Source: an uncultured beta proteobacterium
GTDB lineage: Bacteria > Pseudomonadota > Gammaproteobacteria > Burkholderiales > SG8-41
Direction: 5' to 3'
Assembly: GCA_902825845.1 (NCBI GenBank)
Contig: CADECM010000022.1
Location: forward strand, 160-64,159
Length of the DNA: 64,000 bases
Part shown: piece after piece, positions 3,757 to 42,551 of the stretch
Layout of the letters: every line of letters starts with the position of its first letter
Numbering within the stretch: the first letter of the stretch is position 1
Position numbers and translations under genes: made by a program
The notes under the pieces: model-generated
The model's input: the letters and a program-made list of their open reading frames with translations, nothing else
Told to the model about the DNA's origin: nothing
The model's database searches: none

Positions 3757-3767
3757 TTGCCACACGC

Positions 3768-5145: not shown

Positions 5146-5147
5146 CA

Positions 5148-6254: not shown

Positions 6255-6270
6255 AATCCATTACTTATAA
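6240..6270 (+). repeat. AT-rich boundary motif, copy a
   Basis: AATAAATTTGTTTAAAATCCATTACTTATAA. Contains the TAA stop of the rSAM gene, and the convergent gene's stop lies 2 nt beyond it. Confidence 0.65.
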
Positions 6271-6271
6271 T

Positions 6272-6934: not shown

Positions 6935-6998
6935 TGTTATTCCCCCTGTCGGCGGCCCTTGACGCCAGCGCCCGCCGGTATAATAGAGCCTTTTTATC

Positions 6999-15195: not shown

Positions 15196-15222
15196 CTTAA
15201 GTATTTGTTTTTATTGTATTTT
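15196..15222 (-). repeat. AT-rich boundary motif, copy c
   Basis: The minus strand reads AAAATACAATAAAAACAAATACTTAAG. It overlaps the PrpD-like stop codon and lies ~95 nt upstream of the acyl-CoA dehydrogenase start. Confidence 0.7.
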
Positions 15223-16597
15223 ATTTACGAAGCGCCGTAACGGATACCGCACCGTCGAAGAACCCCGGTACCGATTTCAGAAATGCACTCAGTTGCGCCT
15301 CGTCCCATCCGCCAAACAGCGCATTGCGGCGGAACTTGTCCTCGATCTCGGCGCGCGTGAGCGGCTCCTGCGCGCCACCACGAATATGATTTTGCCGTTC
15401 CTCCACCACGCTGCCGTCTTTCAACGTCATGCGCACGTGGCCGGTGTAGGCCTTGGGATACGGATTGTTGGGGTCCACGACATAGCGCACCTTGGACGAC
15501 AGCGCAAGAATGCGCTCATCGCGCACGGTGTCCTCGGTAAATGCCGCAAGCCCCGCGCCGCCGGTCACAAACGCCACCGCGATATTGAACGGCGCGCTGA
15601 ACTTGGCCGCATAGTCGTTGGCCGGACGATGCTTGGACGGCAGCGGATCCCACAGCCGATGCACATAACCTTCGGCGGTTTCGCACAGGATGTCGGTCAC
15701 GTCTTCCGGCTTGATACCCTTTCTCGCAAGACGCAACGCGCAATCGACATAGGGCTGGTTCATGGTGCCGGTGGCATAGGGCTTGAAGGTAATGACATCG
15801 GTGTACCACTGTTTGCCGAAACCCTCGGTGAGCACGCCGTAATCGCCTTCCGCATTGCGCGCAAACGCATAGTAAAACCCATGCGTGCCCTCGAACACGG
15901 TGCGCGGCCCGAGAAACCCCTGCTGCCCGAAGCGCGCAGCCTGGATGCCGATCTTCGCCGCCCACCCCGCATGCAGGCGCTTGGTCCAAGCGCCCTCGGC
16001 CAGGTACTCGATGATGCCACCCGCCATGCTGCCAGCGATGCCCAGCGCATCCACGGTCTGCCTGCGATTCAGGCCCATGGTGACGCTCACTGCGAGCGTA
16101 GCCGCCATCGCGCCGAGAACGCCAGTCGGATGGAAGCCCGACTTGTGTATCGCCTTGGGGATCACCATCGACAGCCGGCACAGGGTTTCAATCCCCGCCA
16201 CCATGCCCTTGAACGCCGCCGTGCCATCGCAGCCAAAGCGCTCACACGCTGCCAGCACTGCGGGCATGATCACCGCGCTCGAGTGCACCGGACCACCCTC
16301 GAAGGTATCGTCAAAGTCTTCGCCGTGCGCCGCGCAACCGTTGATCATGGCCGCGGTTTCCGCTGCATAGGTCGCGCGATGTCCGATGGCGGTTGCCGCA
16401 CCGCCGCTGTCGACGCCCGCGACAACCGCCTTGATGTAGTCGGTATTGCGCGCCGCAACGCACAGGCCCACCACGTCGATCAGCAGTTCTTCGATGCGCG
16501 TGCGCACCGCCGCGGGAACGGCACTGACCTCCAGCGCCAGCGCCTGATCGGCGATGCGCTCTGCAACAGCCATCGTTTCATTCCGGGTCACAGTCAT
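15221..16597 (-). CDS. MmgE/PrpD family protein
   Basis: 458 aa from ATG 16597, 10 nt after the upstream stop. PrpD-like N-terminal regulatory and helical domain sequence. The 589-aa ORF extension overlaps the upstream gene and was rejected. Confidence 0.85.
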   Translation of the reverse strand: MTVTRNETMAVAERIADQALALEVSAVPAAVRTRIEELLIDVVGLCVAARNTDYIKAVVAGVDSGGAATAIGHRATYAAETAAMINGCAAHGEDFDDTFEGGPVHSSAVIMPAVLAACERFGCDGTAAFKGMVAGIETLCRLSMVIPKAIHKSGFHPTGVLGAMAATLAVSVTMGLNRRQTVDALGIAGSMAGGIIEYLAEGAWTKRLHAGWAAKIGIQAARFGQQGFLGPRTVFEGTHGFYYAFARNAEGDYGVLTEGFGKQWYTDVITFKPYATGTMNQPYVDCALRLARKGIKPEDVTDILCETAEGYVHRLWDPLPSKHRPANDYAAKFSAPFNIAVAFVTGGAGLAAFTEDTVRDERILALSSKVRYVVDPNNPYPKAYTGHVRMTLKDGSVVEERQNHIRGGAQEPLTRAEIEDKFRRNALFGGWDEAQLSAFLKSVPGFFDGAVSVTALRK

Positions 16598-16607
16598 GGC
16601 CTTACGG

Positions 16608-18380
16608 TTACCAGCCCAGCACGTAGGCCGGACGCCGCAAATCGGCGCCACCGTGCATGACACCGTTTTTGTGGTCATTGACAATGGTGCACACCGCGCC
16701 CGCGAGCCAGGTGAAATCCGGCCATTCGCGCACGTCGTGTCCGCGCGCCGCGAGATTGTCGTTAACCGACTTGTCGATGCGTGATTCAAGATACAGCCGA
16801 TCCGGAAAATACGCATGCGGTTCGAACGATCCCGGGTAACTGTAGGTCGAAAAGCGCGGCGCCTCGATCGCATCCTGCGCCGACATGCCGAACACGTTGA
16901 CGTTAAGGAACACCTGCAGCATCGCCTGCGTCGGCACATCGCCGCCCGGTGTGCCGAACGGCATGTACGCCTTGCCGTTCTTGAACGCAAGCGCGGGGTT
17001 GGGCGTCAGTCGCGGCCGTTTGCCCGGCGCCACCGAGGACGGATGCGAGGGATCGCTCCACGACTGCGTGCCGCGGCCCGAACACAGAATGCCCACACCG
17101 GGAACGATCGGCGTCTGATCCGAACCGTCGCTCGGCGTGCACGACATGGCATTGCCGTCCTTGTCGATCACGCAAAGGTACGAGGTATCGCCCGGACCCG
17201 GTTCGCCCGCGCCCTGTGCGGGCGACATGGCGCGGTTGTCAATTTCGGTCATGGTTTTCGGATCGCCGCCGCGCGGCATGCCGGCACAGGCGGCATCCAT
17301 GCGAATGCGCGTGCGCTGCCACGCCGCGTATTTTTCCGACATCAGGCCGGCCATCGGCACTTTGACAAACCGCGGATCGCCGAAATGATTGTGGCGGTCG
17401 GAGAACGAGAGTTTCAGCGCTTCGGTCAGCAGATGGATGTAATCGGGCGTGTTGTGTCCCAGCGCACGCAGATCGTAGCCTTTGAGAATATTCAGCGCCA
17501 TCGGCAGCGCTGGCCCCTGCGACCACGGGCCGCAGGCATGCAGTTCGATGCCTTCGAAGCGCGTTTTCACCGTGGGCTCGTGGCGCACGCCAAATTCGGC
17601 GAAATCCGCGAAGCGCATGAGGCCGCCCTGCTTTTCGATCCAGCGCGCCACCTCGCGCGCCACGTCGCCTTTGTAGAACGCATCGCGCGCAGCCTTGAGG
17701 CCGGCCTTGCGGCCCTTCTTGCGCGCCACCTTGCGTTCTTCGTCCGCCAGAAACTGCAGCGTGCGGCCCAGTTCGGATTGCACAAACACTTCGCCCACCT
17801 GCGGCACCCGGCCCCTCGGCAAAAATACCCGCGAGCTCGACGGCCAGCGTTCGTAGTCCTTGCGGTGGTTCGTAATGAATTGCGACAGCAGCCCGTAGAC
17901 CGGGAAGCCCTTGCTCGCAAAGCGGATCGCCGCGGAGGCCACCTCGCCAAAACTCATGGTGCCGTAATTCGCCAGCGCGGTGATCCACGCGTCGGGGGCA
18001 GCCGGTACCACGCAGCGTTCGACACCCGGTGGAATCTTGCCGCCGTGCCGCTTTTGGAAGTAGTCCGGTGTGATCAATTTCGGCCACACGCCGAGGCCAT
18101 CGATGCAGTGCACTTTTTTGTCCCTGGCGGTGTGAATGATCATCGGCGCGACGCCGCCGAAATTGACTTTGTCCGTCTGCACCACGCCGATGGTGATCCC
18201 CGCCGCCACGCCGGCGTCGATGGCGTTGCCGCCGGCCTCCAGAATTTCAAACGCGGCGTGGGCCGCCAGATAATGTCCGGCCGCGACGACATGGCGCGTG
18301 CCCATGATGGTGAGGCGCGGCGAGGATTGGGTCTGCTTGACTGCGGGTAACGCATTGGGTGGCAAATCGCGTGGATTCAT
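16608..18380 (-). CDS. gamma-glutamyltransferase family protein (paralog 1)
   Basis: 590 aa from ATG 18380. HVVAAGHYLAAHAAFEILEAGGNAIDAGVA N-terminus and an autoprocessing-type Thr context, GPGDTSYL. Confidence 0.85.
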   Translation of the reverse strand: MNPRDLPPNALPAVKQTQSSPRLTIMGTRHVVAAGHYLAAHAAFEILEAGGNAIDAGVAAGITIGVVQTDKVNFGGVAPMIIHTARDKKVHCIDGLGVWPKLITPDYFQKRHGGKIPPGVERCVVPAAPDAWITALANYGTMSFGEVASAAIRFASKGFPVYGLLSQFITNHRKDYERWPSSSRVFLPRGRVPQVGEVFVQSELGRTLQFLADEERKVARKKGRKAGLKAARDAFYKGDVAREVARWIEKQGGLMRFADFAEFGVRHEPTVKTRFEGIELHACGPWSQGPALPMALNILKGYDLRALGHNTPDYIHLLTEALKLSFSDRHNHFGDPRFVKVPMAGLMSEKYAAWQRTRIRMDAACAGMPRGGDPKTMTEIDNRAMSPAQGAGEPGPGDTSYLCVIDKDGNAMSCTPSDGSDQTPIVPGVGILCSGRGTQSWSDPSHPSSVAPGKRPRLTPNPALAFKNGKAYMPFGTPGGDVPTQAMLQVFLNVNVFGMSAQDAIEAPRFSTYSYPGSFEPHAYFPDRLYLESRIDKSVNDNLAARGHDVREWPDFTWLAGAVCTIVNDHKNGVMHGGADLRRPAYVLGW

Positions 18381-18559
18381 GGCGGCTCTCCAGACATTGC
18401 AAAATTTTTGCGGGGCTCCGGGATTCCCGCCCCCTTTCGATTTTAGTCTCAATTGCGCTTGCGCGGCAGGCACCCAACGCCTGCTGCGATCCCTGAATCG
18501 ACGCCCAGACGCCAGCCCCTGTAAAATCCGCGTTTCCTGCAGAAAAAGCGAGAACCGCC

Positions 18560-20155
18560 ATGGACATGTTCGACTTTCAGTTTCCCTATCCGTCACAGCG
18601 TATGCCCGTGCTTGCGCGCAACTGTGTCGCGACCTCGCAACCGCTGGCGGCGCAGGCCGGCCTGCGCATGATGCTGAAAGGCGGCAACGCGGTGGACGCC
18701 ATCCTTGCCTCGGCCATCTCGCTGACCGTACTGGAACCCACCAGCAATGGCATCGGCAGCGACGCGTTCTGCATCATGTGGGACGGCAAACAGCTGAAGG
18801 GTCTGAACGCCTCGGGCCGCTCGCCGGCCGCGTGGACGCCCGACCGGTTCAAGGGCAAAAGTGCGATGCCGGCGCGTGGCTGGGATTCGGTGACGGTGCC
18901 CGGCGCGGTATCGGCATGGGTCGAGATGTCGGCAAAATATGGAAAGCTACCCTTCGCCGACCTGTTCGAACCCGCCATCAAGTACGCGAGCGATGGTTAC
19001 ATGGTTTCGCCAACGATTTCCCGCCTGTGGGCCGGTGGCGTCGCCGAGTTGAGCGCACAGCCGGGCTTTGCCGAGGCATTCATGCCGCATGGCCGCGCGG
19101 TGCAGGCCGGCGAAACCTTCGTGGCCAAGGCGCACGCGGCAACGCTTCAGCGCATTGCCGAGACCAAAGGCGAGGCTTTTTATCGCGGCGATCTCGCTGA
19201 AAAAATCGCGGCTTTCGCCAAACAACACGGCGCTGCGCTGACGCTCGAGGACCTGGCAACGCACACCCTCGACTGGGTGGAGCCTGTCGGCATCGATTAT
19301 CGTGGCTACACGCTGCACGAGATTCCGCCCAACGGCCAGGGCATCGCGGCGCTGATCGCGCTGGGCATCCTCGAAAACTTCGATGTCGCCGCGCTGCCGA
19401 TCGATTCCCCCGACTGCATGCACCTGAAAATCGAGGCGATGAAACTCGCGTTTGCAGACATCAACGAATACGTGTCGGACATATCCACCATGCGCGTGAC
19501 GCCGGCGCAGATGCTCGACAAGGCCTATCTGAAGGAGCGCGCCAAACTGATCGACATGAAAAAGGCCGGCACGCCGTCCTTCGGCACGCCCAGCAGGGGC
19601 GGCACGGTGTATCTCACCGCTGCCGACGAGTCGGGCATGATGGTGTCGTACATTCAGTCCAACTACTCCGGTTTCGGATCGGGCGTGGTGGTGCCCGGCA
19701 CCGGCATCAGCCTGCAGAATCGGGGCTATGGCTTCAGCCTGAAACCCGGCCATGCCAACGTCGTCGCGCCGAAGAAGCGCCCGTTTCACACCATCATTCC
19801 CGGCTTCCTGACCAAAGCCGGCCAGCCGCTGATGAGTTTCGGCGTGATGGGCGGCTCAATGCAGGCGCAGGGCCATATGCAGGTGGTTTCGCGCATGGTC
19901 GATTACCACCAGAACCCGCAGGCAGCCAGCGACGCACCGCGCTGGCGCATCGACAGCGGGGTCACGGTCGGCATCGAGCACGGCGTGCCCGCCGCGACCA
20001 TTGCCGCGCTGCAGGCGCGCGGCCATGACATGCCGCAGGCGGATCGCTGGAGCACGGACTTCGGCCGCGCGCAATTGATTTACAAGATGGAAAACGATGG
20101 CGGCTACTTCGCCGCTTCGGAACGGCGGGCCGATGGCCAGGCGGTAGGTTACTAA
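18560..20155 (+). CDS. gamma-glutamyltransferase family protein (paralog 2)
   Basis: 531 aa with the GGNAVDAILA motif and the nucleophile context GGTVYLTAAD. Divergent from paralog 1. Confidence 0.85.
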   Translation: MDMFDFQFPYPSQRMPVLARNCVATSQPLAAQAGLRMMLKGGNAVDAILASAISLTVLEPTSNGIGSDAFCIMWDGKQLKGLNASGRSPAAWTPDRFKGKSAMPARGWDSVTVPGAVSAWVEMSAKYGKLPFADLFEPAIKYASDGYMVSPTISRLWAGGVAELSAQPGFAEAFMPHGRAVQAGETFVAKAHAATLQRIAETKGEAFYRGDLAEKIAAFAKQHGAALTLEDLATHTLDWVEPVGIDYRGYTLHEIPPNGQGIAALIALGILENFDVAALPIDSPDCMHLKIEAMKLAFADINEYVSDISTMRVTPAQMLDKAYLKERAKLIDMKKAGTPSFGTPSRGGTVYLTAADESGMMVSYIQSNYSGFGSGVVVPGTGISLQNRGYGFSLKPGHANVVAPKKRPFHTIIPGFLTKAGQPLMSFGVMGGSMQAQGHMQVVSRMVDYHQNPQAASDAPRWRIDSGVTVGIEHGVPAATIAALQARGHDMPQADRWSTDFGRAQLIYKMENDGGYFAASERRADGQAVGY

Positions 20156-21755: not shown

Positions 21756-22733
21756 CTACTGATCCAGCTTGATGTTGGCGGCCTTGATCGCGTGGGCATA
21801 TCGCGCCGTCTCAGCCTTGATCCTGGCGGCGAATTGCGCCGGATTCGAAACGTAAGGTTCGGCCCCCACCGTGGCCAGCCTTTCCCTGACATCCGGCATC
21901 ACCAGAATCCTGCCGATCTCATCCGACATTTTGCCGATGAGCGGCTTCGCGACGCCGGCGGGGAACACCACGCCCTGCCAGTAGTTCACGTCGAAATTCG
22001 GCAGGCCGCCCTCGCCAAAGGTCGGCAGCTGTGGCAAGGCCGCCAGGCGCGACTCCCCCGTAATGGCCATGGCCTTGAGCTTGCCGCTCTTCACATGACC
22101 AATCAGGTTGATCGGAACGTTCAGATGCGCCTGCACCTGACCACCGAGCAGATCCACCAGCGCCGGACCGCCACCTTTGTACGGCACGTGCTGCAGCTTG
22201 ATGCCCGCCAGGATGCTCAATACTTCCATCGCGACATGGCCCTGACCACCGCTGCCGGACGAGGCGTAGTTGAGTTTCCCGGGACGGGACTTCGCATACG
22301 CAATCCACTCCTGCAGGTTGCCCACCGGTATCGAGGAATGCAAGACCAGCATGAACGGAATGCGCGTCAGGGAGGCTACCGGCGCGAAATCGCGCAGCGT
22401 GTCATATGGCAGCCTGGGGTACAGATTCGGCAGAATCGCCAGCGTGCTGTCCACGAATAACATGGTGTAGCCATCCGGCGTGGCACGGGCGCCAATTTCA
22501 GTTCCGATAATGGTATTGCCGCCGCCACGATTATCCACCAGCACCTGCTGGCCCCAGCCATCGGTCAGCTTCTGACCGATGATGCGTGCCACCACCGTGG
22601 TACCGCCGCCTGGCGGGTATGGCGTAATGAATCGAATTGGCTTGGCAGGATAGGATGGCTGGGCGGCGGCACCGGTGACAGCCAACATCACGCCTGCAGC
22701 CAGCACGCTCGTCCATGCGATTGAGCACCTCAT
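21756..22733 (-). CDS. Bug family tripartite tricarboxylate transporter substrate-binding protein (TctC-like)
   Basis: Signal peptide followed by the YPAKPIRFITPYPPGGGTT motif. Start ATG 22733. Confidence 0.85.
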   Translation of the reverse strand: MRCSIAWTSVLAAGVMLAVTGAAAQPSYPAKPIRFITPYPPGGGTTVVARIIGQKLTDGWGQQVLVDNRGGGNTIIGTEIGARATPDGYTMLFVDSTLAILPNLYPRLPYDTLRDFAPVASLTRIPFMLVLHSSIPVGNLQEWIAYAKSRPGKLNYASSGSGGQGHVAMEVLSILAGIKLQHVPYKGGGPALVDLLGGQVQAHLNVPINLIGHVKSGKLKAMAITGESRLAALPQLPTFGEGGLPNFDVNYWQGVVFPAGVAKPLIGKMSDEIGRILVMPDVRERLATVGAEPYVSNPAQFAARIKAETARYAHAIKAANIKLDQ

Positions 22734-22918
22734 TGCCTGACCTCCCGGACTTCGGGTTGAACATTCGGTCGCACTACTGGTGCAAGCCCGCGCGACATTC
22801 CGCAGGATGTGCGACAGGTTACACAAAATGCACCGACCACGGCTAATGCTATCGGTGTGGCTGCTATCGACAACACGGGGTTATGCACACGGACTGCGCC
22901 AGTCGCGCTTTCGCCGCG

Positions 22919-22953
22919 CCGAAAACACAGCGGCCACCCGCAGGTGGCCGCTG
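22919..22953 (-). terminator. candidate intrinsic terminator after the UGSC gene
   Basis: 11-bp perfect stem CAGCGGCCACC / GGTGGCCGCTG with a 4-nt loop, followed on the minus strand by TGTTTTC. Confidence 0.5.
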
Positions 22954-22970
22954 GCCGGCGCACACCACAA

Positions 22971-23507
22971 CTAGCCCTTCTGCCCTTCCAGCAGCAACTT
23001 AGCCACTTCCGGCGCAATGGCCGCCGCGCGCTCGTCGAGTTGCTTGTCCGTCAGATTCGCAATCGGATGCGGCATTTCGAGGAAACGGAAGCCCTCCAGT
23101 CCCCAGGTGCGTGCCATGGCATTGCCGGTGGCGCGGAACACGTGGGTGATGATCGAGGCCGAGGGAATCCCTTGCTGTTCAAACACGATGCTGTCGAGCA
23201 CACTGCCCGAGCTGCATGACCCTCAGTCGCCGACGCCGGCAACAATGACGTCGACGTTGCCTTTGTATTCCTCGATGATCTCGGCATGCGGCGCCGAACC
23301 CGAACTCTTCTTGCGGCGGATCACGCGCGACTTGGTGCCGTGTTCCTTTTCCAGTATGTCGGCAATACGCATCAGCAACTGGTCAGAGTTGTGCTTGGTG
23401 TTGTCGATCAGACCGACCCGCAGGCCGTTGAGAGACTTGGGACGTGGCGCGTAATTGATGCGCCGCCCCGCTATCTCGGTGGTGGGATCCAGAATTTGCA
23501 CGGTCAT
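22971..23507 (-). CDS. UGSC-type (GrdB/PrdB-like) candidate selenoprotein with an in-frame TGA
   Basis: ATG 23507 has AGGAG upstream. ORFs 23223..23576 and 22971..23201 are in the same frame and are joined by the TGA at 23223..23225. Read-through gives ...VDVIVAGVGD-U-GSCSSGSVLDSIVFEQQGIPSASI...EMPHPI. Confidence 0.7.
23194..23210 (-). promoter_or_regulatory. candidate SECIS-like hairpin downstream of the UGSC TGA
   Basis: mRNA UCGGGCA-GUG-UGCUCGA, 13-29 nt after the UGA. The loop contains G and U. Confidence 0.3.
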
Positions 23508-23595
23508 ATGATGTGCTCCTTTCGATGAAAACAAACAAAAAAACCTTTGCCACAGATTAACGCAGATCAAAACCAAAGGGGTTTGCGACTCACGC

Positions 23596-24627
23596 CTACT
23601 TGATCTCCCGCGTCACGCTTTGCGAGCCGTTTTTGCCGCCCCAGCCCGGGATAAAACACGATTGCACGCCGGCAATGCCGCCCGCCGCGATCACCAGGAA
23701 ATCCTGCGGGGTTTCCACCAATGTCACCATGTTCTTTTCGTCATCCGCGGTCACCTCGCCCGGGGCGACGTGAATGCGCTTCAATTCCGCCAGCGACGTC
23801 CTGGAATGCTCGAAACAGAAATTCTGCACCTGCTCGCGCGTCCAGCCGGCTTTCTTGATGGTCAACTGATGCTCGCCCGGAAACACCATAGCATACTGCG
23901 GCTTGCGATTGCTGCCCGCGGATATACGCATGCTCGCGCACATGGTTTCCAGTATGCCGTCAGGCGTGGCGCTCAACTGGTTGGAAATCTGGTGCGGGGC
24001 CAGTGCCGCGAACACGGTCACCGCGTTCTGCTCCCTGCTGAAGCCGCGCGTGGTATGGAACGGCGGCCACGGACTGCTGTCCGTCTCGTTCTCGGCGATG
24101 CAGTAGGAATACTTGCCGCCGTGTCCCATGCTGCTGCGATCCAGTTCGCCGGGCAGCGTACCAATCACATTGCGCATTACCAGCCGCACTGCGCGGCCGA
24201 TGGTGGCGTTCGCGCGCCAGCCGGGGCCGAACAGGTTGTCGCCGGAATTCATGTCGAGCTTTTTGGCAATGGGGCCGTTTACCAGCATGAATACCGCCGA
24301 TCCGCCGGTGCTGGTGGCCGGGCCATGGTAACCATACTTGGGGTCCGCCAGCGCTTCGATCGCGGCGGCCACCACCGGCATGTATTCGGGCTTGCAGCCG
24401 GCCATCACAGCGTTGATCGCCACTTTTTCCGCGGTCACTTTCACCTGGCGGTTTTCGATAAACGCCAGCTGGTGCTGCGGATCGAGTTTGGCCGCCGTCA
24501 GCATCGCTTCGACTTTTTCCGCGGTCGGCGGTATCACCGGCAGACCGTCGGTCCATCCGTTCGCGTAGCAAAGTTCCAGCGCATCCCCCACATCCTTCGC
24601 GTCATGCCGCCGTGCTTTCAGTTCCAT
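23596..24627 (-). CDS. conserved-looking hypothetical protein (343 aa), family not recognised
   Basis: AGGAAAG lies upstream of the ATG. Sequence blocks GWTDGLPVIPPT and AINAVMAGCKPEYMPVV. Sits immediately upstream of the UGSC gene. Confidence 0.65.
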   Translation of the reverse strand: MELKARRHDAKDVGDALELCYANGWTDGLPVIPPTAEKVEAMLTAAKLDPQHQLAFIENRQVKVTAEKVAINAVMAGCKPEYMPVVAAAIEALADPKYGYHGPATSTGGSAVFMLVNGPIAKKLDMNSGDNLFGPGWRANATIGRAVRLVMRNVIGTLPGELDRSSMGHGGKYSYCIAENETDSSPWPPFHTTRGFSREQNAVTVFAALAPHQISNQLSATPDGILETMCASMRISAGSNRKPQYAMVFPGEHQLTIKKAGWTREQVQNFCFEHSRTSLAELKRIHVAPGEVTADDEKNMVTLVETPQDFLVIAAGGIAGVQSCFIPGWGGKNGSQSVTREIK

Positions 24628-24679: not shown

Positions 24680-25765
24680 TCAAGTCAAGACGTATTTCGC
24701 GTCACAACGCGCGCAGATGTCGCGAATGTGCCGATCCAGCTTTTCCGGTATCGGGATGCCATTCTTGAGCCGGCTTTCGCGCTCGGCGGCCTCCGGATCG
24801 CCCGCCACCAGCACCGGGCGCTCGGGGTCCAATGGCGGCGTGGCATGCAAAATGTCGATCACCTCGTCCAGATCGTTCTCAAACTCCCCTTCTCCGCGAA
24901 AGGCCCTGGGATCGATGGCCAGAAAAAAATGCCCGATGTTGTCCGGATCCTTGTCGCCCTGCGATTTTTCGCGAATGGGTGAAAAACTGCCGCCGTTCAG
25001 GGTACCGCCGAGAATATGCGCCATCATCGCCAGGCCATAGCCTTTGTAGCTCGCCATCGATTCCATGCCGCCCACCGGCGTGATGCCGCCCGCCTTGTTG
25101 CCCTCGCGCATCATCGCCAGGGCCTTGCCCGCATCGGTAACCGTCCTGCCCTCGCCGTCAATCACCCAGCCTTCGGGCAATTTCTTGTTGTTCAGGTCGT
25201 AGACCTTGACCTTGTTGGCGGCGGAGGTGGTGGTCGCCATATCGAGCGTGAACGGCCGGTTGCGTTTTGCCGGCGCGCTGAAGGCGATGGGATTGGTGCC
25301 CAGCACGGGAATTTTGCCGCGCGTGGGCACCATGGTAATCCCGCGCGTGGCGCTGGTCACCATGCCGATTACGCCGCGCCTGGACGCGATGCGCGCGTAG
25401 ACGCCAGTGGCGCCGAAGTGATGCGAGTTGCGCACGCCCACGCCGGCAACACCAATTTTCAGCGCCTTGTCCACCGCGAGGTTCATGGCGAACACCGACA
25501 CCGGATGGCCCAGACCAGCCTGTCCGTCGACCAGCGCCATCGCCGGCGTATCTCGAACAATGGTGGGCTTGGCATGCAGGTTGAGCTTGCCCTCGAGTTT
25601 GCGCGCCTCGTACGTCATCAGCATCGAAATGCCATGCGAATCCACGCCCAGCAAATCGGTTTCCACCATCGCATCGGCGGTGATGGCGACCAGATCGTCC
25701 GCCATACCCCAGGCACGAAGGATGTTGACGATTTGCTGGCGCACGCGGTCGTGAGTGATGTTCAT
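24680..25765 (-). CDS. Ldh_2 family (malate/L-lactate/sulfolactate dehydrogenase-type) oxidoreductase
   Basis: 361 aa with MVETDLLGVDSHGISML and RNSHHFGATG motifs. Confidence 0.85.
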   Translation of the reverse strand: MNITHDRVRQQIVNILRAWGMADDLVAITADAMVETDLLGVDSHGISMLMTYEARKLEGKLNLHAKPTIVRDTPAMALVDGQAGLGHPVSVFAMNLAVDKALKIGVAGVGVRNSHHFGATGVYARIASRRGVIGMVTSATRGITMVPTRGKIPVLGTNPIAFSAPAKRNRPFTLDMATTTSAANKVKVYDLNNKKLPEGWVIDGEGRTVTDAGKALAMMREGNKAGGITPVGGMESMASYKGYGLAMMAHILGGTLNGGSFSPIREKSQGDKDPDNIGHFFLAIDPRAFRGEGEFENDLDEVIDILHATPPLDPERPVLVAGDPEAAERESRLKNGIPIPEKLDRHIRDICARCDAKYVLT

Positions 25766-26711: not shown

Positions 26712-27701
26712 CTACTTGGCCTCAAGCTTCGCGTCACGCACCACCTTCGTCCAGCGTGCAATTTCGGATTGCACATGCGCCATGAATCCCTCGGGCGTGG
26801 CGGTGTCGACATCGACAGCCTGTTCTTCCAGGCTTTTCCACAGTGGGCTGCCGTCGGCCAGCAGCTTGTTCATGTCGGCATTGATTTTGGTGATGACAGG
26901 CTGCGGCACCTTTGCCTGCGTGCACAGGCCGTACCAGCCCGTGACATCAAAACCGTTTACGCCCTGCTCCTGAAACGTCGGCACCGCCGGCAAGCGAGAG
27001 TTTCGTTTCGCCGACGTCACGCCCAGACCGCGCAGGCGACCGGATTTGACCGCGGACAGCGGTCCACCCGCAAGATTGCCGACCGACGATTCGATGTGCC
27101 CCGCCATCACGTCAGCCAGCGCCAGCGCCGCTCCCTTGTACGGCACATGCACGATTTTGATGCCGGTGATATTCATCATCAGTTCGACCGACATATGCGG
27201 CGATCCACCCACCCCGGAAGAACCAAAGTTGACCTGACCGGGGTGTGCCTTGGCATAAGCAATGTATTCGCGCAGGGACTTCGCCGGCATGGACGGATGC
27301 ACCATGAAAATATTGGGCACGCCGCCGATCTTCGCGGCAAACGCAAAGTCCCGGATGGGATCGTATTTCAGGCGTTTGCCAAAGCGCGCGGGCGTGACAC
27401 TGTGCGACCCGATATTGCACAACACCAGCGTATAACCGTCAGGCGGCGCGGCCGCCGTGATCTCCGTGGCAATATTGCCTGCCGCGCCGGGCCGGTTTTC
27501 CACCAGTACCTGCGTGCTCCACGCTTTGGTCAACGCCGATGCCACCAGGCGCGCGGTGGTGTCGACGCCGCCCCCCGGGGCGTAACCGACCAAAATGCGC
27601 ACGGGCTTCGACGGATAATTTTGCGCGGTGGCGGGTGGCACGAAACAGGACGTCGCTGCCAACAACGGCAGGGCAATGGCACGCGATCTGAAATACATCA
27701 T
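26712..27701 (-). CDS. Bug family tripartite tricarboxylate transporter substrate-binding protein (TctC-like)
   Basis: Signal peptide followed by the YPSKPVRILVGYAPGGGVD motif. GAGGAG lies upstream of the ATG. Confidence 0.85.
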   Translation of the reverse strand: MMYFRSRAIALPLLAATSCFVPPATAQNYPSKPVRILVGYAPGGGVDTTARLVASALTKAWSTQVLVENRPGAAGNIATEITAAAPPDGYTLVLCNIGSHSVTPARFGKRLKYDPIRDFAFAAKIGGVPNIFMVHPSMPAKSLREYIAYAKAHPGQVNFGSSGVGGSPHMSVELMMNITGIKIVHVPYKGAALALADVMAGHIESSVGNLAGGPLSAVKSGRLRGLGVTSAKRNSRLPAVPTFQEQGVNGFDVTGWYGLCTQAKVPQPVITKINADMNKLLADGSPLWKSLEEQAVDVDTATPEGFMAHVQSEIARWTKVVRDAKLEAK

Positions 27702-28133: not shown

Positions 28134-28859
28134 TTATACCGGATCGCGTTGCGGCGCGGCGCGCAGCAGCGCGCTGTAGTACGCCGGCTGCGGCAGTCCG
28201 CTGAAGGACGCCAACTGGATCGGTCCTGACGCATCCGCTTCGCGCCACCACAGCGTCTTGCCATGGGCCATTGACTCCCATCCGTGCACAGCGGCCATGT
28301 GTATGAGACGCTGCATGTCGAGCCCGGCCGGGATTGCCATTTCAAAGTTGCCGGACGGCGCCTGCCACCAGGCCGCCAGCGCGGCGACTGGCGCATCGTG
28401 CGCCGCGGCAGCCGCCGCCGGAAACGGCATGGAGGCCAGATGTTCCTCGAATCGCTGCAGACTGAAATCAACACTCAAGGTTGCCAGCGCGGTTTCTTCC
28501 AGGTCACCGTACCAGTCGCGCGCGCTCAGGAACGCACTGACAGCTCCCGCGCAAACCGGCATCGCGACGGCTATCGTCAGCGGAAAATGTCGTCCCACCT
28601 TGTCAACACTGGGCATCATGACGCCGCCCCACAAGGTGTCGCCGATCACACCGGGCATCAACACAAATCGCCATACGGGACTATTCATGTAGATATCGAG
28701 CCATTTCTGACCCAGCAGGTCGCGGCTAGCCGTCATCGCCTGTTGCAGCCAGCCGTCCCAGATGGATATAAACGGCTGGCTCAGGCGGCGCGAGGCAAAG
28801 TCGCCGAGCGACGGTATCTTGCCGTACCAGCCCGGTACCCGCTCCGCGTCCGCCGCCAT
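28134..28859 (-). CDS. tagF: type VI secretion system-associated protein TagF (DUF2094)
   Basis: VPGWYGKIPSLGDFASRRL N-terminus. The ATG overlaps the tssM stop (ATGA). Confidence 0.8.
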   Translation of the reverse strand: MAADAERVPGWYGKIPSLGDFASRRLSQPFISIWDGWLQQAMTASRDLLGQKWLDIYMNSPVWRFVLMPGVIGDTLWGGVMMPSVDKVGRHFPLTIAVAMPVCAGAVSAFLSARDWYGDLEETALATLSVDFSLQRFEEHLASMPFPAAAAAAHDAPVAALAAWWQAPSGNFEMAIPAGLDMQRLIHMAAVHGWESMAHGKTLWWREADASGPIQLASFSGLPQPAYYSALLRAAPQRDPV

Positions 28860-31800
28860 CAGAGTCCGCCCGGACAGCGAAACTGTTCCAGGTCCTGCAG
28901 GCGGAACGGATTGCGCACGCTGCTCGCGGTCACCTCGAACTGCGCCTGCCGCCCGTCGATCACGAAGGTGGCCAGGAACTTCTCCGCCTGCGGCGTCGCT
29001 TCGATCTTGACCTGATCGAACATGCGGAACAACGCCCACGGCCCTTCGAACGGGCCAAAGCCGCGCGTGGCCGGCGGTGTCAGCTGTACGCGCACCTGGG
29101 TACTGCCGCGCGGGCCCGGCCACTGCACCGCCTGCGGCACCTGCGGACCGTGGCTGTATTTGACGATCTGGCCGTCCACATCGAGGATGAATTGCGAGAT
29201 CGCGACATCCATCGACAGCGGTTTGAAATCGAGCCGCAGGCTGGGCGTCGCGCCGCCGCGAAAGAACACCTCGCGGATGGTCTGGGCGCGCTGGAACTGC
29301 AGCAACGTGCCGCCGTCACCGCCCATGCTGGCGTCGCCCACCTGGCGGAAGCGCCAGGGTTGCGCGGCGGTGTCCACCAGTGAGGCAAGATTCTTCTGGA
29401 AAAAACCGTCCATCAGCCGTCCGGAACCGAACAACTGCGCAAAATCTTCCTGCGTCACATTGCTCGCGCTGCCTTTGGCGAACGGATAGCGCCCGCCGAT
29501 CGCCTTGCTGCAGAAGCCGTAAATTTCAGCCTGCACCGCCTTGGATAAATTGTATTTCATGCCTGAAAGCGCCTGATTCTGTCCCGCCAATGCGAGCGTG
29601 CTCAACAAGGATTTGACGGGCTCGGGCAGGCGCCCGGCCTCCGCCTTGGCCTTGATCGGCAAATCGGTGGGCGGCGGCGGATTGCCGCCCTTTACCGCCA
29701 GTTCGGTGGCCGTGAGCTGGGCATAGAGTTCGCCGATCAGCGACAGCGTTCCGTCGATGGGCGCGGGTTGTCCCTGGCCCGCGCCTCGCACATACTCGCG
29801 CAACGCAGTAAAGCGGTCATCGACGATCAGTTCGGGCCGCGACAGCGTATCGGCCGCGGGCGCCGCGGCGCGCTGTGAGCCGCCCATCAGGCGTCCCATC
29901 GTTTCCTTGGTCTTGGCGATCACGTCTTCCGCTTTGCGCACCACGTCCTTGTCTGCATCCGCCACGCTCACCAGCGTCACCTCCTTGACGATGGCCTGCA
30001 GCAGCCGGCGCAACGGCGAATCGGGCGCGGCCAGCACGCGCGTCTGCTGGATCGTCTGCGACAAACCGCCGCCGTGCTGCAACCGTACGTCTTCGACAAA
30101 CGCGCTCCAGGTATTCGCGTAATCCGTCAGATACAGACGCTTGACCTCGTTGAGCAGCGCTTCGCGGGTCTTGAGATCGCCGGGATTGATGCGTTCCGCC
30201 TTGGGCAAATCCAGCACCCAGCCCTCCTCGCTGGCGAGCTGATTGGTGACCACCAGCGAGTCCTTCAGGAAACTGCCGTGGTATGCCTGATAACTGAACA
30301 GACCGGGCACCCCCGAGTTCAGCGGCTTGCCGCTGGCGCGCGCGAACACCAATGCCGCCGATGGCCCGGCCGCCGTGGCCAGCTTGAACTCCGGCTGTCC
30401 CTTGCCGATGCCCAGGCGCTTCAGGCGGCTGTAGACGCGTTCCGCCAGCGGCATGCGTGCCAGTGCGGCGCGCGCTTCAGCCAGCAGACTGGCGTCGGCG
30501 GGCACCGGCGAGGCAACGGCGCCCTGGCGGAACAATTCGGCGAGGTGTTCGCGCAAGGCCACGCGCTGCTCGCTGGTGACACTCTGCGGCAGATTGCGTT
30601 CCCAGTCGGATTCGATATACCCCTGCAATGCGCCGGCATCGAAGTGTTCGACATCGTGCAGCATGATGTAGGCCTTGAGCGTTTCGTAGAGAAACTCGAC
30701 GCTCTGATCACCGCGATTGCGCAACTGGGATTCGATGCGCCGCGAAAGACTCGGCAGGAACGCACTCTGCAGCACCCTGCGGTAGGCACTGTTGGCAGCA
30801 CCCTCCAGCTTGTCACTTTGCGACAACCCCAAGCCCATCAACAGGCCGTCGCGATTGGCGTCGGTGGACGGCAGATCGCGGATCGATTGCAGCAGCGGCA
30901 GCAGCCTCACCACGTCGCTTTCGCCGGCCGGATTGAGCGCTGCCACCTGTTTGGCCAGCGGCGGCACCTTCGCCTGCACCGCGGCGACGTGCGCCTTGTT
31001 GCGCGTGTAACTGATGGTCCAGGCGGCCACGCTGCCGAGGGTGACCGCCGTGGCCAATCCCAGTCCCGTCCACTGCAGCAAGGTTCGGCGGCGCTCCCAG
31101 CGCAGGTTGGCGCCCGCCAGCCCGGCCTCGTTGAAAATCACCGAATCCAGCAATCGCGTCAGGAAATAGCTGCGGCCGCTGGGTTGCTGCGGCGCGAGCA
31201 TGCGTGCCTCCAGGCGCAGCGCGCGGCCGAGACTGCCGATGACGCGGTCGATCGCGCTGCCTTCCTGGGTCCCACTGGTGAAGTAAACGCCGCGCAGCAT
31301 CGGCTGTTCCACAAAGCGCGACGGCGCAAACACCTTGCCCACGAAGTCGTCCAGAATGCCCTTGAGACTGCTGAATTGCTGCGGAAAGGCGTAAATCAGC
31401 GCGCGCAGATTGGGGGTGCGCTCATCCTGCAACAGGTCGATGACGCGATCATTGAGGCGCTGTTCCAGCGCATCGAATTCGGACCTGAACGCGGGTGCCG
31501 CCGGCCCCGCCTCGGCCGCCTGAAACGCGAACGTGGTGCCCCAAACCTGCGCGCGCTCTTCCGCGCCGAGCTTCTGGAAGAACTCCACGAACCCCGCCAG
31601 CAAATCCATCTTCGTCACCAGCACGTAGATCGGGAAGCGGATGCCCAGCTGTTCATGCAACTCTTCCAGGCGCTGGCGCAGGATGCTGGCGTGGTGTTCG
31701 CGCTCCGCGGCCGATTGCTGCAGCAGATCGCTGACACTGATCGTCAACAGCGCGCCGTTGATGGGGCGCCGCGGGCGGAATTTCCGCAGCAGGGAAAGAA

Positions 31801-32446
31801 AGCCGCTCCACGCCGCGCGATCGACCTCGACATTCGCTTCATGCGTGGTGTAACGGCCCGCGGTATCGATCAGTACCGCCTGATCGGTGAACCACCAGTC
31901 GCAATTGCGCGTGCCGCCGACGCCGCGGATCGCCTCCTGCCCGAAGCGCTCGGCCAGCGGAAACTTGAGGCCGGAATGAATCAGCGCGGTGGTCTTGCCC
32001 GAACCCGGCGCGCCGATGAAGATATACCAGGGCAACTGATAGACATAGCGCCTGGACAAGCGCGCGGCGAGGCCGGGTGCCTTGTCGCTGCCGCCCAGCC
32101 GCGCCTTGCTCAGAATCTTCATCGCGTCTTCAAAACGATTGCCCAGCGTGGCAATCTCGTCCGCGCCGGGCGCGTCCTGCGCCGGCCTGGCGGGCGCTTG
32201 TTTCAACAGCGTTTCGAACAGCCGCGCATTGTTCAGTTTCGCCCGCAGCGCACGCCAGGCGATTCGGCCCAGGAACAAGCCCCACACCACGGCAATGGCT
32301 ATCCAGCGCGCCGTGGCGGACTCCAACGGCCGGTACTCGCCAAGCGCAAGCAGCGGCCCGCCGTACCAGATGACCAGACTGATCAGCAGCAGGCCCAGTG
32401 CCGTCATCGTCCAGCGATTGAAGATCCAGCCCAGAAGCTTTTTCAT
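28859..32446 (-). CDS. tssM: type VI secretion system membrane subunit TssM (IcmF)
   Basis: ~1195 aa with N-terminal TM helices, Walker A GAPGSGKTT and an IcmF-like C-terminal region. Confidence 0.9.
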   Translation of the reverse strand: MKKLLGWIFNRWTMTALGLLLISLVIWYGGPLLALGEYRPLESATARWIAIAVVWGLFLGRIAWRALRAKLNNARLFETLLKQAPARPAQDAPGADEIATLGNRFEDAMKILSKARLGGSDKAPGLAARLSRRYVYQLPWYIFIGAPGSGKTTALIHSGLKFPLAERFGQEAIRGVGGTRNCDWWFTDQAVLIDTAGRYTTHEANVEVDRAAWSGFLSLLRKFRPRRPINGALLTISVSDLLQQSAAEREHHASILRQRLEELHEQLGIRFPIYVLVTKMDLLAGFVEFFQKLGAEERAQVWGTTFAFQAAEAGPAAPAFRSEFDALEQRLNDRVIDLLQDERTPNLRALIYAFPQQFSSLKGILDDFVGKVFAPSRFVEQPMLRGVYFTSGTQEGSAIDRVIGSLGRALRLEARMLAPQQPSGRSYFLTRLLDSVIFNEAGLAGANLRWERRRTLLQWTGLGLATAVTLGSVAAWTISYTRNKAHVAAVQAKVPPLAKQVAALNPAGESDVVRLLPLLQSIRDLPSTDANRDGLLMGLGLSQSDKLEGAANSAYRRVLQSAFLPSLSRRIESQLRNRGDQSVEFLYETLKAYIMLHDVEHFDAGALQGYIESDWERNLPQSVTSEQRVALREHLAELFRQGAVASPVPADASLLAEARAALARMPLAERVYSRLKRLGIGKGQPEFKLATAAGPSAALVFARASGKPLNSGVPGLFSYQAYHGSFLKDSLVVTNQLASEEGWVLDLPKAERINPGDLKTREALLNEVKRLYLTDYANTWSAFVEDVRLQHGGGLSQTIQQTRVLAAPDSPLRRLLQAIVKEVTLVSVADADKDVVRKAEDVIAKTKETMGRLMGGSQRAAAPAADTLSRPELIVDDRFTALREYVRGAGQGQPAPIDGTLSLIGELYAQLTATELAVKGGNPPPPTDLPIKAKAEAGRLPEPVKSLLSTLALAGQNQALSGMKYNLSKAVQAEIYGFCSKAIGGRYPFAKGSASNVTQEDFAQLFGSGRLMDGFFQKNLASLVDTAAQPWRFRQVGDASMGGDGGTLLQFQRAQTIREVFFRGGATPSLRLDFKPLSMDVAISQFILDVDGQIVKYSHGPQVPQAVQWPGPRGSTQVRVQLTPPATRGFGPFEGPWALFRMFDQVKIEATPQAEKFLATFVIDGRQAQFEVTASSVRNPFRLQDLEQFRCPGGL

Positions 32447-32526
32447 GCGCGACTCCGGCCGCAAAACCGCCCGCGGCGCGCGCGCAGCGTCCGGCAGCGG
32501 CATTCCCGCGTCAAGGCGCGCATCGC

Positions 32527-33837
32527 TCAGGTCCCCTTGCTGGCGGCAAACAGCGTGATCTCGATGCGCCGGTTGCGCGAACGGCCGTCCGCGCCGGCGT
32601 TATCGGCGATGGGCTCGGCATCGGCGCGTCCTTCGGCGGACAGACGCTCCGCGGGCACCACCTGCGCAATCAGACGCAGCACCATGCGCGCGCGTTCCTC
32701 CGACAAATGCCAGTTCGACGGGAAGCGTGCGGTGCGTATCGGCTGGTTGTCGGTATGGCCGATCACCTGAACCTTGCCGGGGACGCCCTTCAATGCGTCC
32801 GCAATGCGCTGGATCAGTGGCAGATAGCGCGCGGAAATGGTGGTGCTGCCAGGCTCGAAAAGACCGTCGCCACGAATCGTAACCACGCTCATGGTGCGTT
32901 CGTCGCGCACGGCCACCAGTCCTTCGGCGATCTCCGGCGCGAGGAAAGTGGCCAGACGCGGCGGCACCGGTAGCGGCGCGGCCGCGGCAGGCGCCGGTGC
33001 CGGCGCGGTGACACGAAGGGCCTGAATCCGCGCATACGTCTGATCCGACAGATCGCCCAGCTTGTAGCGGTAGACAAAGTACACGCTCAGCATGATCGCC
33101 GTCGCAAGCGTTCCGGCAATCCACAGCGGCAGCGCATCGAGAATTTTGGAACGCGCCGCGACCACGCCTTTCCAGCGCGGAGACAGGTCGCGCTCATAGT
33201 CGCCGGCGGCCTTGTGCAATATCTGCGCAAGGCGCTCGCGCAGCACTTCCAGCTGCGAGCGCCCATTGTCAATCACCCGGTAGCGGCCCTCAAAGCCGAA
33301 GGCGAGGCACACATACATGAGTTCCAGCAGCGAACGGTTCGCCGCGGGATTTTCCGCCAGCTTGGACAGCAGCTGAAAAAACTTCTCGCCGCCCCAGGTC
33401 TCATTGTGAAACAGCACCAGCAGGCTGTTGCGTGCCCACATGCCCGATCCGCCCCACGGCGTGGAGGCAGCCGTCTCGTCCACCACCGTGCACAGCACAT
33501 AGCGGGCAGCAATGATGTTTTCCGCGGAAACGCCGGCCTCGCGCGCGCGCATTTCGAAGCGCTTGATTGCTTCCACCAGATAATCGCGCAGGGCCGCGGC
33601 ATCCGGATGATTGAGCGTGGTGCGCAACTGCGGAATAACATCGAGCAGTGGGTTGGCCGCGGCCACCAGCGGATTCATGCCGGCAACCACCGGGGGATCG
33701 GCCACCTGCGCCGGCGCACCAGTATCCGCGGCCGCGCGGGCCGCGCCTTGCCCGGGGATACTGCGCCCGCCCGGCGTGGGCATGATCACCGTCCGTCCGG
33801 CTTCCGGCATCGCAAAGGGATCGTCGTTGTTGCTCAT
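32527..33837 (-). CDS. tssL: TssL/DotU with a C-terminal OmpA/MotB peptidoglycan-binding domain
   Basis: DotU-like N-terminal domain, a TM helix, and a C-terminal OmpA-like region (HTDNQPI..NWHLSEERA..NRRIEI). Confidence 0.9.
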   Translation of the reverse strand: MSNNDDPFAMPEAGRTVIMPTPGGRSIPGQGAARAAADTGAPAQVADPPVVAGMNPLVAAANPLLDVIPQLRTTLNHPDAAALRDYLVEAIKRFEMRAREAGVSAENIIAARYVLCTVVDETAASTPWGGSGMWARNSLLVLFHNETWGGEKFFQLLSKLAENPAANRSLLELMYVCLAFGFEGRYRVIDNGRSQLEVLRERLAQILHKAAGDYERDLSPRWKGVVAARSKILDALPLWIAGTLATAIMLSVYFVYRYKLGDLSDQTYARIQALRVTAPAPAPAAAAPLPVPPRLATFLAPEIAEGLVAVRDERTMSVVTIRGDGLFEPGSTTISARYLPLIQRIADALKGVPGKVQVIGHTDNQPIRTARFPSNWHLSEERARMVLRLIAQVVPAERLSAEGRADAEPIADNAGADGRSRNRRIEITLFAASKGT

Positions 33838-33848
33838 GGCGCGGCCGC

Positions 33849-35189: not shown

Positions 35190-35259
35190 TCATCCGTCGG
35201 CGGTTGCGGGCGCGAGGGGAAGACCGGGCCTGTGATGGAAAGACACGTGTCATCAGCCG

Positions 35260-35733: not shown

Positions 35734-35854
35734 TGAATTCTCCTGATACGGACGCCGAACGTGTCGGCCTGACGCGCCGCCCCGCGACGTTTTTTCCCGC
35801 GATATCACGGCAGGGATGCAGTATAGAGTATCTGTACGCCGCGCGCGGGCCCGT

Positions 35855-37510: not shown

Positions 37511-37664
37511 CCGGATCCTCTTTCCTACCGCCAGCCAAATTACGTCCCCAAAACAATCACTTGCAGCCCGCAGCCATTTTATACCTTGCGCAGCAGCTGC
37601 CACACCAGGCACTGCGACGCGGAGCGCGGCGCCGTCAAATATGCAACCCGATACGACATGAATA

Positions 37665-42547: not shown

Positions 42548-42551
42548 GATT

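Follow-up and report, generated by a model that had tools for sequence, protein, structure and literature searches.

A UGSC-family gene with an in-frame TGA, very probably decoded as selenocysteine, and its linked partner gene A in an uncultured betaproteobacterium

The window analyzed here is a 64,000-nucleotide (nt) stretch of DNA from an uncultured beta proteobacterium of the Burkholderiales (assembly GCA_902825845.1, contig CADECM010000022.1, positions 160 to 64,159 of the forward strand). Its reverse strand carries a gene that very likely encodes a selenoprotein of the UGSC family and, immediately upstream, a gene that we call A (Table 1). Two open reading frames (ORFs), one of 117 amino acids (aa) with a TTG start and one of 76 aa with a GTG start, lie in the same frame and are separated only by a TGA and seven sense codons (GSCSSGS). 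Translated from the ATG at 23507..23505 to the TAG at 22973..22971, the sequence gives 94 aa, a selenocysteine (Sec, U) at the TGA and a further 83 aa, 178 aa in all; the residues around the TGA read ...NVDVIVAGVGD*GSCSSGSVLDSIVFEQQGIPSASIITHVF...EMPHPIANL..., and the Sec-spanning segment of the product reads ...VAGVGD-U-GSCSSGSVLDSIVFEQQGIPSASIITHVFR. The N-termini of homologues line up with this ATG in the alignment. A first-pass annotation, made from the sequence alone, had reported the coordinates and shared frame of the two ORFs, the TGA with its seven codons, the 178-aa read-through product with an AGGAG upstream of its ATG, and a hairpin at nt 13–29 after the UGA; all are borne out by the sequence and its translation, the hairpin lying at 23210..23194. 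It had also claimed that gene callers would split the gene, as they have: on a public Logan contig that encodes an identical A, the UGSC gene is called as products of 94 and 76 aa, both of which carry PF24696. The same error, two hypothetical ORFs (94 and 76 aa) in place of one gene, occurs in every metagenomic contig inspected, and recognizing the TGA as Sec restores the complete 178-aa protein. Twelve other pairs of open frames joined by a TGA are found in the window; they have the look of shadow frames or gene junctions, and none contains a redox motif.

Table 1. Features at the UGSC locus and elsewhere in the window (position 1 is the first letter of the window)
Feature	Position	Strand	Details and basis
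UGSC-family gene, probable selenoprotein	22971..23507	(-)	178 codons including Sec; TAG stop 22971..22973
Upstream ORF of the split call	23223..23576	(-)	117 aa, TTG start; ORF list
Downstream ORF of the split call	22971..23201	(-)	76 aa, GTG start; ORF list
In-frame TGA, very probably Sec (U95 of the VGD-U-GSC motif)	23223..23225	(-)	Cys at this column in homologues; TGA in at least 120 genome loci
Candidate bacterial SECIS core	23194..23210	(-)	7-bp stem UCGGGCA/UGCUCGA, apical GUG (loop 23201..23203); folding and comparison
Extended SECIS context	23190..23215	(-)	Lower imperfect helix flanking the core; 26-nt fold, −8.9 kcal/mol
Shine-Dalgarno sequence AGGAG	23516..23520	(-)	8 nt 5′ of ATG 23507; direct sequence reading
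Spacer between A and UGSC	23508..23595	(-)	88 nt, T-rich (…CCTTTGG…CAAAGGTTTTTTTGTTTGTTTTC…)
Partner gene A	23596..24627	(-)	343 aa; immediately upstream of UGSC, same strand
Intrinsic-terminator-like hairpin	22928..22953	(-)	11 bp, 9 of them G-C, then UGUUUUC; terminator scan
Antisense ORF	23017..23454	(+)	145 aa, high GC3; overlaps the UGSC gene
Ldh_2 gene	24680..25765		Next to A
TctC ('Bug') binding-protein gene	21756..22826	(-)	Periplasmic; flanks the Ldh_2/SDR/A/UGSC block
TctC ('Bug') binding-protein gene	26712..27701	(-)	Periplasmic; flanks the Ldh_2/SDR/A/UGSC block
MmgE/PrpD gene	15221..16990		
Gamma-glutamyltranspeptidase paralogue	16608..18596	(-)	Longest-ORF start overlaps that of the next row
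Gamma-glutamyltranspeptidase paralogue	18560..20155	(+)	Divergent to the preceding row
Type VI secretion cluster	28859..37612	(-)	TssM/IcmF (1214 aa), TssL/DotU-OmpA, TssK, TssJ lipoprotein, FHA-domain protein
Signalling gene run	39340..46106	(-)	GGDEF, GGDEF-EAL, FIST, HDOD, HD-domain (HD_5) with DUF3391

As judged by curated profiles, the product belongs, as an ordinary member, to a known selenoprotein family of uncharacterized function. With Sec replaced by Cys for scoring against hidden Markov models (HMMs), it reaches 140.6 bits with NF041046, "UGSC family (seleno)protein" (NCBIfam; kind equivalog; curated cut-off 125), and 189.9 bits with PF24696, "UGSC family" (Pfam; cut-off 25), where it spans profile positions 1–171 of 172. 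A search of 5.8 billion proteins returned about 50 full-length homologues of 176–192 aa and 50–61% identity. All but three of these have C-G-S-C at the TGA column, which is Cys in every full-length homologue with a [CU]G[ST]C motif (47 of the 50 best matches). Ten nearer homologues (70–74% identity) stop exactly at ...VAGVGD, and these are Sec forms cut by gene callers. Both the HMM score and the Cys at the TGA column uphold the first-pass claim of a UGSC-type selenoprotein, and the alignment with homologues shows that the family does not end at the TGA. Invariant in 43 sequences are P8, L33, N36, K38, L45, G91, G93, D94, C/U95, G96, C98, D105, E110, P115, F124, H147 and P148, and a profile search of 1.84 billion cluster representatives recovered 4745 UGSC relatives at E ≤ 0.001.

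The family is the "UGSC-containing protein" of Zhang and Gladyshev (PMC2398784), and its published record goes back at least to 2008. It ranked among the most abundant selenoprotein families of the Global Ocean Sampling data, with 255 Sec versus 21 Cys forms, and was commoner in non-marine samples; it had no Pfam or COG domain at that time, its fold was given as "likely" thioredoxin-like, and a fusion to an "Unknown_1" domain was reported (PMC2398784). Reviews of 2022 and 2026 count the family among proteins with largely uncharacterized functions. New here are the partner A, the predicted folds and a graded answer on the relation to GrdB and PrdB; the family itself was already known.

To collect Sec forms, we scanned one genome per GTDB species with the degenerate DNA pattern G-[VI]-G-D-TGA-G-S-C-S-S-G, which gave at least 120 loci, with a rough chance-match estimate of about 10. 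Among the 120 matches listed, all 120 are genuine family members in which the downstream half is open and conserved. They come from Burkholderiales and other Betaproteobacteria, Methylomirabilota (Rokubacteria), Chloroflexota, and Desulfobacterota and other deltaproteobacteria, and further from Tectomicrobia, Nitrospinota, Acidimicrobiia and an Alteribacillus isolate. When the half of the present gene that follows the TGA is compared with its eight nearest orthologues (about 80% DNA identity), 22–30 codons differ synonymously and 7–9 non-synonymously, and third positions dominate the divergence just as they do in the half before the TGA. Because this divergence is mainly synonymous and at third positions, the post-TGA half appears to be translated in the UGSC frame. 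Based on these comparisons, we conclude that the TGA is very probably recoded to Sec.

The hairpin downstream of the UGA has the properties of a bacterial Sec insertion sequence (SECIS). Counted from the U of UGA, its core occupies nt 16–32, with G23 and U24 in the loop, and folds at −7.5 kcal/mol (z = −3.1 relative to shuffled sequences) or, in a 26-nt context, at −8.9 kcal/mol. The published model of bacterial SECIS elements (PMC13188914) gives an apical loop of 3–9 nt, an upper stem of 4–16 base pairs (bp), a loop pattern N1-G-[G/U]-N-N2 with a G in the first two loop positions, a UGA-to-loop distance of 16–37 nt and a minimum free energy (MFE) of −7.5 kcal/mol or lower. The corresponding values here are a GUG loop, a 7-bp stem, the pattern A-GUG-U, a distance of 19 nt, and an MFE that lies at the limit for the core alone.

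The 17 nt UCGGGCAGUGUGCUCGA are almost invariant in 122 Sec-form sequences, even though they encode S-G-S-V-L-D with free wobble positions. Entropy in the Sec forms is 0–0.33 bits at five wobble sites inside the hairpin versus 1.0–1.8 bits at flanking sites, and this conservation is no ascertainment effect, because the scan pattern left every position beyond nt 20 unconstrained. A control set was obtained with the same DNA pattern and TGY in place of TGA; it holds 19 genuine Cys-form genes, 13 of which encode the identical SSGSVLD peptide, and its entropy at the same wobble sites is 0.9–1.8 bits (n = 19). The 7-bp stem is complete in 120 of 122 Sec forms versus 1 of 19 Cys forms, and the Ser codon in the loop is AGU in 121 of 122 versus 0 of 19. 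Six of the seven core pairs are intact in 76 of 77 distinct rows, and pair 21–27 is intact in all 77, with six double-sided changes (C-G to U-A four times, to G-C twice) and zero breaks. The stem is lengthened to 10 bp in Methylomirabilota-type genes (UCG...CGG, −14.6 kcal/mol), and by a G-C pair across a bulge in Burkholderiales-type genes. The SECIS proposed at first pass is thus kept in orthologues across phyla, lost in Cys forms, and in agreement with the published rules. We propose that the UGA (23225..23223) would be read as Sec during translation by means of this element, located 12 nt downstream and within the coding sequence, and that the hairpin would present G23 and U24, so that SelB-GTP-Sec-tRNA(Sec) is recruited to the ribosome.

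The gene upstream of UGSC encodes protein A, for which protein searches gave no Pfam, NCBIfam or PDB match, with the PDB searched also with an A profile. Its family comprises more than 8000 homologous clusters at 90% identity; no cluster comes with a precomputed Pfam domain, and wherever a name is given it is "hypothetical protein". A tblastn search located A in 124 of the 142 loci fetched. Of the 94 loci that extend at least 1150 nt upstream of UGSC, 91 have A as the immediate upstream gene in the same orientation (Sec form, 82 of 85; Cys form, 9 of 9); in the other three it is within about 2 kb. In many genomes the A stop is 278–287 nt before the Sec codon, compared with about 282 nt for the inferred UGSC start, so that the two genes abut or overlap. 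The present lineage has an 88-nt spacer instead, which may be an internal attenuator or promoter region. Starting from A, UGSC was found in the same gene cluster in three of three homologues looked up on long contigs. At one locus, L146 (ena:ERZ25039603:contig_21646, 396..9122), a split UGSC, DUF2848, SBP_bac_5, two ATP-binding cassette (ABC) permeases, two ABC ATPases and A follow one another on one strand; Aldedh, Ldh_2 (about 2.3 kb from A), HpcH/HpaI aldolase and MmgE/PrpD genes lie in its neighbourhood.

UGSC and A are also found fused. Among the best 150 of the 4745 representatives, ten (P0335, P0363, P0367, P0384, P0398, P0413, P0432, P0437, P0448 and P0467) consist of an N-terminal Cys-form UGSC and a C-terminal full-length A, the latter 31–49% identical to A of the window (E 1e-21 to 1e-80). 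The order in the fusions, UGSC and then A, is the reverse of the gene order in operons, where A comes first. The fusions occur in Cys-form proteins only, with none among the 120 Sec-form loci listed. Because of these fusions and the strict linkage, A and UGSC would appear to work as one unit, and the comparisons indicate that A is the obligate partner of UGSC.

Several positions in A are invariant or nearly so, namely a G-W-T-D-G-L-P-V-x-P-P-T motif, an M-A-G-C78 motif, R60, R138, R145, R164 and E179. An AlphaFold2 model built from 114 sequences has a predicted local distance difference test (pLDDT) value of 90.4 and a predicted template-modelling (TM) score of 0.91, and found no match among PDB folds at E ≤ 0.001; no TM score reaches 0.3 (class I fumarate hydratase and cyanuric acid hydrolase are among the entries), and the search is taken as negative. 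The tail of this fold search contains ThiL, selenophosphate synthetase (SelD) and HypE at TM 0.12–0.15, and 5 of 114 A members have weak AIRS_C (PF02769) matches (best E 1e-3), both too weak for any claim. A is also close in length to PurM-superfamily proteins, which is likewise far too weak a likeness for a claim.

We analyzed the fold of UGSC on a homologue, the Cys-form protein P0001, which is 59% identical to the window protein. The AlphaFold2 model of P0001 (42 sequences; pLDDT 91.7) has five beta-alpha repeats, with C95 and C98 between strand 3 (residues 87–93) and helix 3 (residues 96–111). A PDB sequence search with UGSC gave no match; the best PDB fold matches of the model are flavodoxin-like flavin mononucleotide (FMN) reductases (TM 0.47), and the 50 PDB fold matches listed for it include no thioredoxin. 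The predicted fold of UGSC is therefore flavodoxin-like and not thioredoxin-like.

We propose a probable mechanism. The U-G-S-C motif would sit where strand 3 ends and helix 3 begins, a classic place for a redox-active selenol/thiol pair, and UGSC would be a small redox subunit for which A carries the substrate site, with a Cys78 that is almost invariant and four arginines that never vary. This arginine cluster points to a small, anionic substrate molecule. Sec95 would probably act as nucleophile or reductant and Cys98 would resolve the reaction to a selenenylsulfide, after which the oxidized pair could be re-reduced by a system of the thioredoxin reductase/thioredoxin type; the overall logic would parallel that of the GrdB and PrdB selenoprotein B subunits. 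One further homologue, P0406, hints at the electron donor, in that its UGSC part is joined to a Pyr_redox_2 (pyridine-nucleotide-disulphide oxidoreductase) domain bearing the motif C-G-T-C. Six other relatives (P0324, P0342, P0350, P0369, P0408 and P0444) are 268–285 aa long, about 90 aa beyond the usual UGSC length. The sole match of this extension is a sub-threshold one to NifU (E 0.008). A C-x-x-C-[LM]-[VL]-P motif occurs in the C-terminal extension of P0324 and P0342, the two sequences read, and also flanks two of the UGSC-A fusions, at the N-terminus of P0384 and the C-terminus of P0448.

The relation to GrdB and PrdB was evaluated by profile-profile alignment. The comparison set consisted of 18 PrdB/GrdB-like selenoproteins from the Global Ocean Sampling marine metagenome (Dataset S1 of PMC2398784), 14 of which match PF07355 (GRDB). 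With hhalign, UGSC scores 37.7 against this set (E 8.3e-5, probability 60.6%, 60 columns), compared with a mean of 12.5 for 200 column shuffles (standard deviation 2.1, maximum 21.3), 9.6 for the reversed alignment, 20.9 for glutaredoxin (Grx)-like selenoproteins and 10.8 for glutathione S-transferase (GST)-like ones. The aligned features are VD-x-V...U-x-x-C, with the Sec columns superimposed, E-x-x-G-I-P/S-strand and a P-x-G turn, and a permissive alignment extends colinearly to strand 1, where RPKSLNGLRVGLIDNT is paired with KPLSEARVGLVTTG. In the PF07355 model (347 positions), which stops at the Sec column, positions 222–345 correspond to residues 2–127 of a PrdB-like sequence in which Sec is residue 130; this end may come from seed sequences that were cut at the UGA, and since the model ends there, the conserved region after Sec is invisible to Pfam. 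The first-pass description "GrdB/PrdB-like" is accordingly upheld only in part, as a specific profile-profile likeness that exceeds the controls; membership is not established, and there is no PF07355 match. We conclude that the resemblance is specific but weak and probably reflects distant homology without membership.

Taken together, it is highly likely that the locus holds a functional UGSC-family selenoprotein gene whose UGA is read as Sec and whose product is the redox subunit of a two-protein module with A. A number of observations count against this interpretation or limit it. No tRNA genes, tRNA-Sec, selA, selB or selD were found within the 64-kb window, and a scan found tRNA-Sec absent from all fetched loci as well. 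The genome of the window itself is not among these loci, whose nearest members, from Burkholderiales or Betaproteobacteria metagenome-assembled genomes, reach about 81% DNA identity at best. Rfam gave no SECIS or other relevant family (whole window at gathering thresholds; 22900..23600 at E ≤ 10), only chance-level matches and a terminator look-alike. The energy of the SECIS core is only at the −7.5 kcal/mol threshold, and in an 81-nt context the MFE is no better than that of shuffled sequences (z = −0.9); energy alone does not single out the hairpin, and the case therefore rests on comparison. Here the covariation is thin, with six of seven stem pairs lacking any compensatory change, because the stem hardly varies, and it is thus the synonymous-site conservation and the Sec/Cys contrast that carry the argument; only 19 sequences, for the most part of other lineages, make up the Cys control. 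The fold model is of a Cys-form homologue rather than the window protein, the fusion to a thioredoxin reductase-like domain (P0406) is found in one cluster only, and the redox cycle and its electron donor are steps that we infer. As for GrdB/PrdB, hhalign assigns a probability of only 61%, a PF07355 search with 43 UGSC members gave no match at E ≤ 10, and a partner of the GrdE/PrdA type is not present, the conserved neighbour being family A without a Pfam match. Both families, UGSC and A, are known from sequences and models only.

Several of these observations would suit other explanations. Were the locus a pseudogene or two small genes, with the TGA a true stop (for example, by change of TGC or TGT to TGA) and only a 94-aa fragment made, the split ORFs annotated by gene callers, the absence of Sec machinery from the window and the modest hairpin energy would all be accounted for; the same TGA, however, is found in at least 120 genomes across phyla, each with an open and conserved downstream frame, the downstream half is under purifying selection in the present lineage, synonymous sites are frozen only at the hairpin and only in TGA-bearing genes, and the second ORF starts only at an internal GTG in the middle of a conserved alpha/beta domain, which together make a true stop very improbable. 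It is improbable, though somewhat less so, that UGSC is a genuine selenoprotein but a stand-alone thiol-disulphide oxidoreductase of thioredoxin fold, as the 2008 literature suggested, with A unrelated. A UxxC motif at a helix N-terminus is indeed thioredoxin-like in its local geometry, but the five beta-alpha repeats of the P0001 model, its best matches to flavodoxin-like FMN reductases, and an hhalign probability of 1.6% against Grx-like selenoproteins argue otherwise, and neither the adjacency of A in 91 of 94 loci nor its fusion in ten clusters is expected of an unrelated neighbour.

The remaining alternative takes the relation to GrdB and PrdB literally, as a miniature enzyme of the glycine, sarcosine, betaine or proline reductase type in which UGSC is the GrdB/PrdB subunit and A the pyruvoyl-bearing GrdE/PrdA equivalent, and which cleaves a C-N bond of an amino-acid-like substrate by reduction. 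We consider this unlikely, if less so than the two preceding explanations. The specific profile-profile similarity with aligned Sec columns, the two-subunit organization, and the position of some loci among peptide ABC transporters, TctC binding proteins and Ldh_2 dehydrogenases would fit it. Against it stand the absence of Pfam GRDB matches in the UGSC members tested; the lack of similarity of A to the PrdB-like set (probability 0.5%) and to any Pfam family, GrdE/PrdA included; the absence of grdA, trxB or grdC/D-type genes next to UGSC; and the lineage-specific nature of the neighbours other than A. Self-processing of A at Cys78 is pure speculation. Returning to the two-protein module of UGSC and A, we go one step further with a proposal to which we give an even chance: that UGSC and A form a widespread two-subunit selenoenzyme, the small subunit being a stripped-down relative of the GrdB/PrdB Sec domain and the large subunit having a fold without a solved relative, that acts reductively on a small anionic molecule in aerobic and in anaerobic bacteria. 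UGSC and A are found in Burkholderiales, Methylomirabilota, Chloroflexota, Desulfobacterota and others.

Among the fetched loci no neighbour besides A is conserved across lineages. Lineage-specific neighbours include ORFs resembling alpha/beta-hydrolases and TPR proteins in Methylomirabilota, and TctC in Burkholderiales, a group in which the TctC family is greatly expanded. In the window, two TctC genes flank the Ldh_2/SDR/A/UGSC block, and TctC genes occur near UGSC in 28 other loci, mostly of Burkholderiales. The Ldh_2 gene next to A has a counterpart in just one other locus of the 142. Downstream of UGSC, the terminator-like hairpin, which starts 18 nt past the TAG stop and coincides with a weak Rfam tail match to a small-RNA terminator, is probably the end of the operon. 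Opposite UGSC lies an antisense ORF with high G+C at third codon positions (GC3); the same shadow ORF is found opposite UGSC in 81 fetched loci, and it is no gene but arises from G+C-rich codon usage. Elsewhere the window contains an MmgE/PrpD gene, a type VI secretion cluster, a run of signalling genes, several of them related to cyclic di-GMP, and two divergent gamma-glutamyltranspeptidase paralogues with overlapping longest-ORF starts, at least one of which is probably over-called.

The partner, the fusions to it and to a disulphide-reductase domain, the predicted fold and the link to GrdB/PrdB turn an "unknown redox protein" into the testable hypothesis of a two-subunit, selenol/thiol-dependent reductase that a thioredoxin-type system recycles. 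If this is true, a selenoprotein family that ranks among the most abundant in aquatic settings would gain a defined enzymatic context, and A, with its more than 8000 clusters and no Pfam model, would be a new enzyme family. In addition, a SECIS that is nearly invariant across phyla, combined with a natural Cys-form control of the same peptide, offers a clean system for the study of RNA-constrained coding sequence.

The locus can be compared with four known systems. The predicted fold resembles that of flavodoxin-like FMN reductases (e.g., MsuE, PDB 4c76) in its three-layer alpha/beta/alpha sandwich with five strands. The likeness is to the general fold only, as the TM score is only 0.47, the identity is 16%, and a flavin-binding motif was not identified. 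In the E. coli fdhF SECIS, the minimal element comprises nt 15–31 with G23 and U24 in the loop (PMC8659212), and U17 and G23 are involved in SelB binding. The present element is likewise a hairpin inside the coding sequence directly after the UGA, with G23/U24 in the apical loop, and its core is in nearly the same register (nt 16–32). Unlike fdhF, it has a G-U wobble pair instead of the bulged U in the 5′ arm, its apical loop is of 3 nt (5 nt if the A-U pair opens), and no Rfam model matches.

UGSC and GrdB/PrdB (PF07355, TIGR04483) have several features in common: a hydrophobic strand that follows (V)D and leads into U-x-x-C, an E-x-x-G-I-P/S motif with a strand about 12 residues on and then a P-x-G turn, and a similar first strand (P-x-S-x-x-R-V-G-L); in each case the selenoprotein would belong to a multi-subunit system. 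UGSC has 178 aa, PrdB about 240 aa and GrdB about 436 aa, and the insert of about 90–110 residues that separates strand 1 from the Sec strand is missing from UGSC. It is partnered by A, an unrelated family, in place of a GrdE/PrdA pyruvoyl proprotein, and it is not confined to amino-acid-fermenting anaerobes, being present in aerobic Burkholderiales. The closest comparison is with the UGSC family itself (NF041046/PF24696), with which the present member shares the GD-U-GSC motif, a length of about 180 aa, the Sec/Cys dimorphism and a full-length score above the cut-off; its habitat and taxon are consistent with the family, and at the gene level there is no difference. To a literature that has no function, no partner and a presumed thioredoxin-like fold for this family, the present analysis adds a predicted flavodoxin-like fold and, as the conserved linkage and the fusions indicate, an obligate partner in A.

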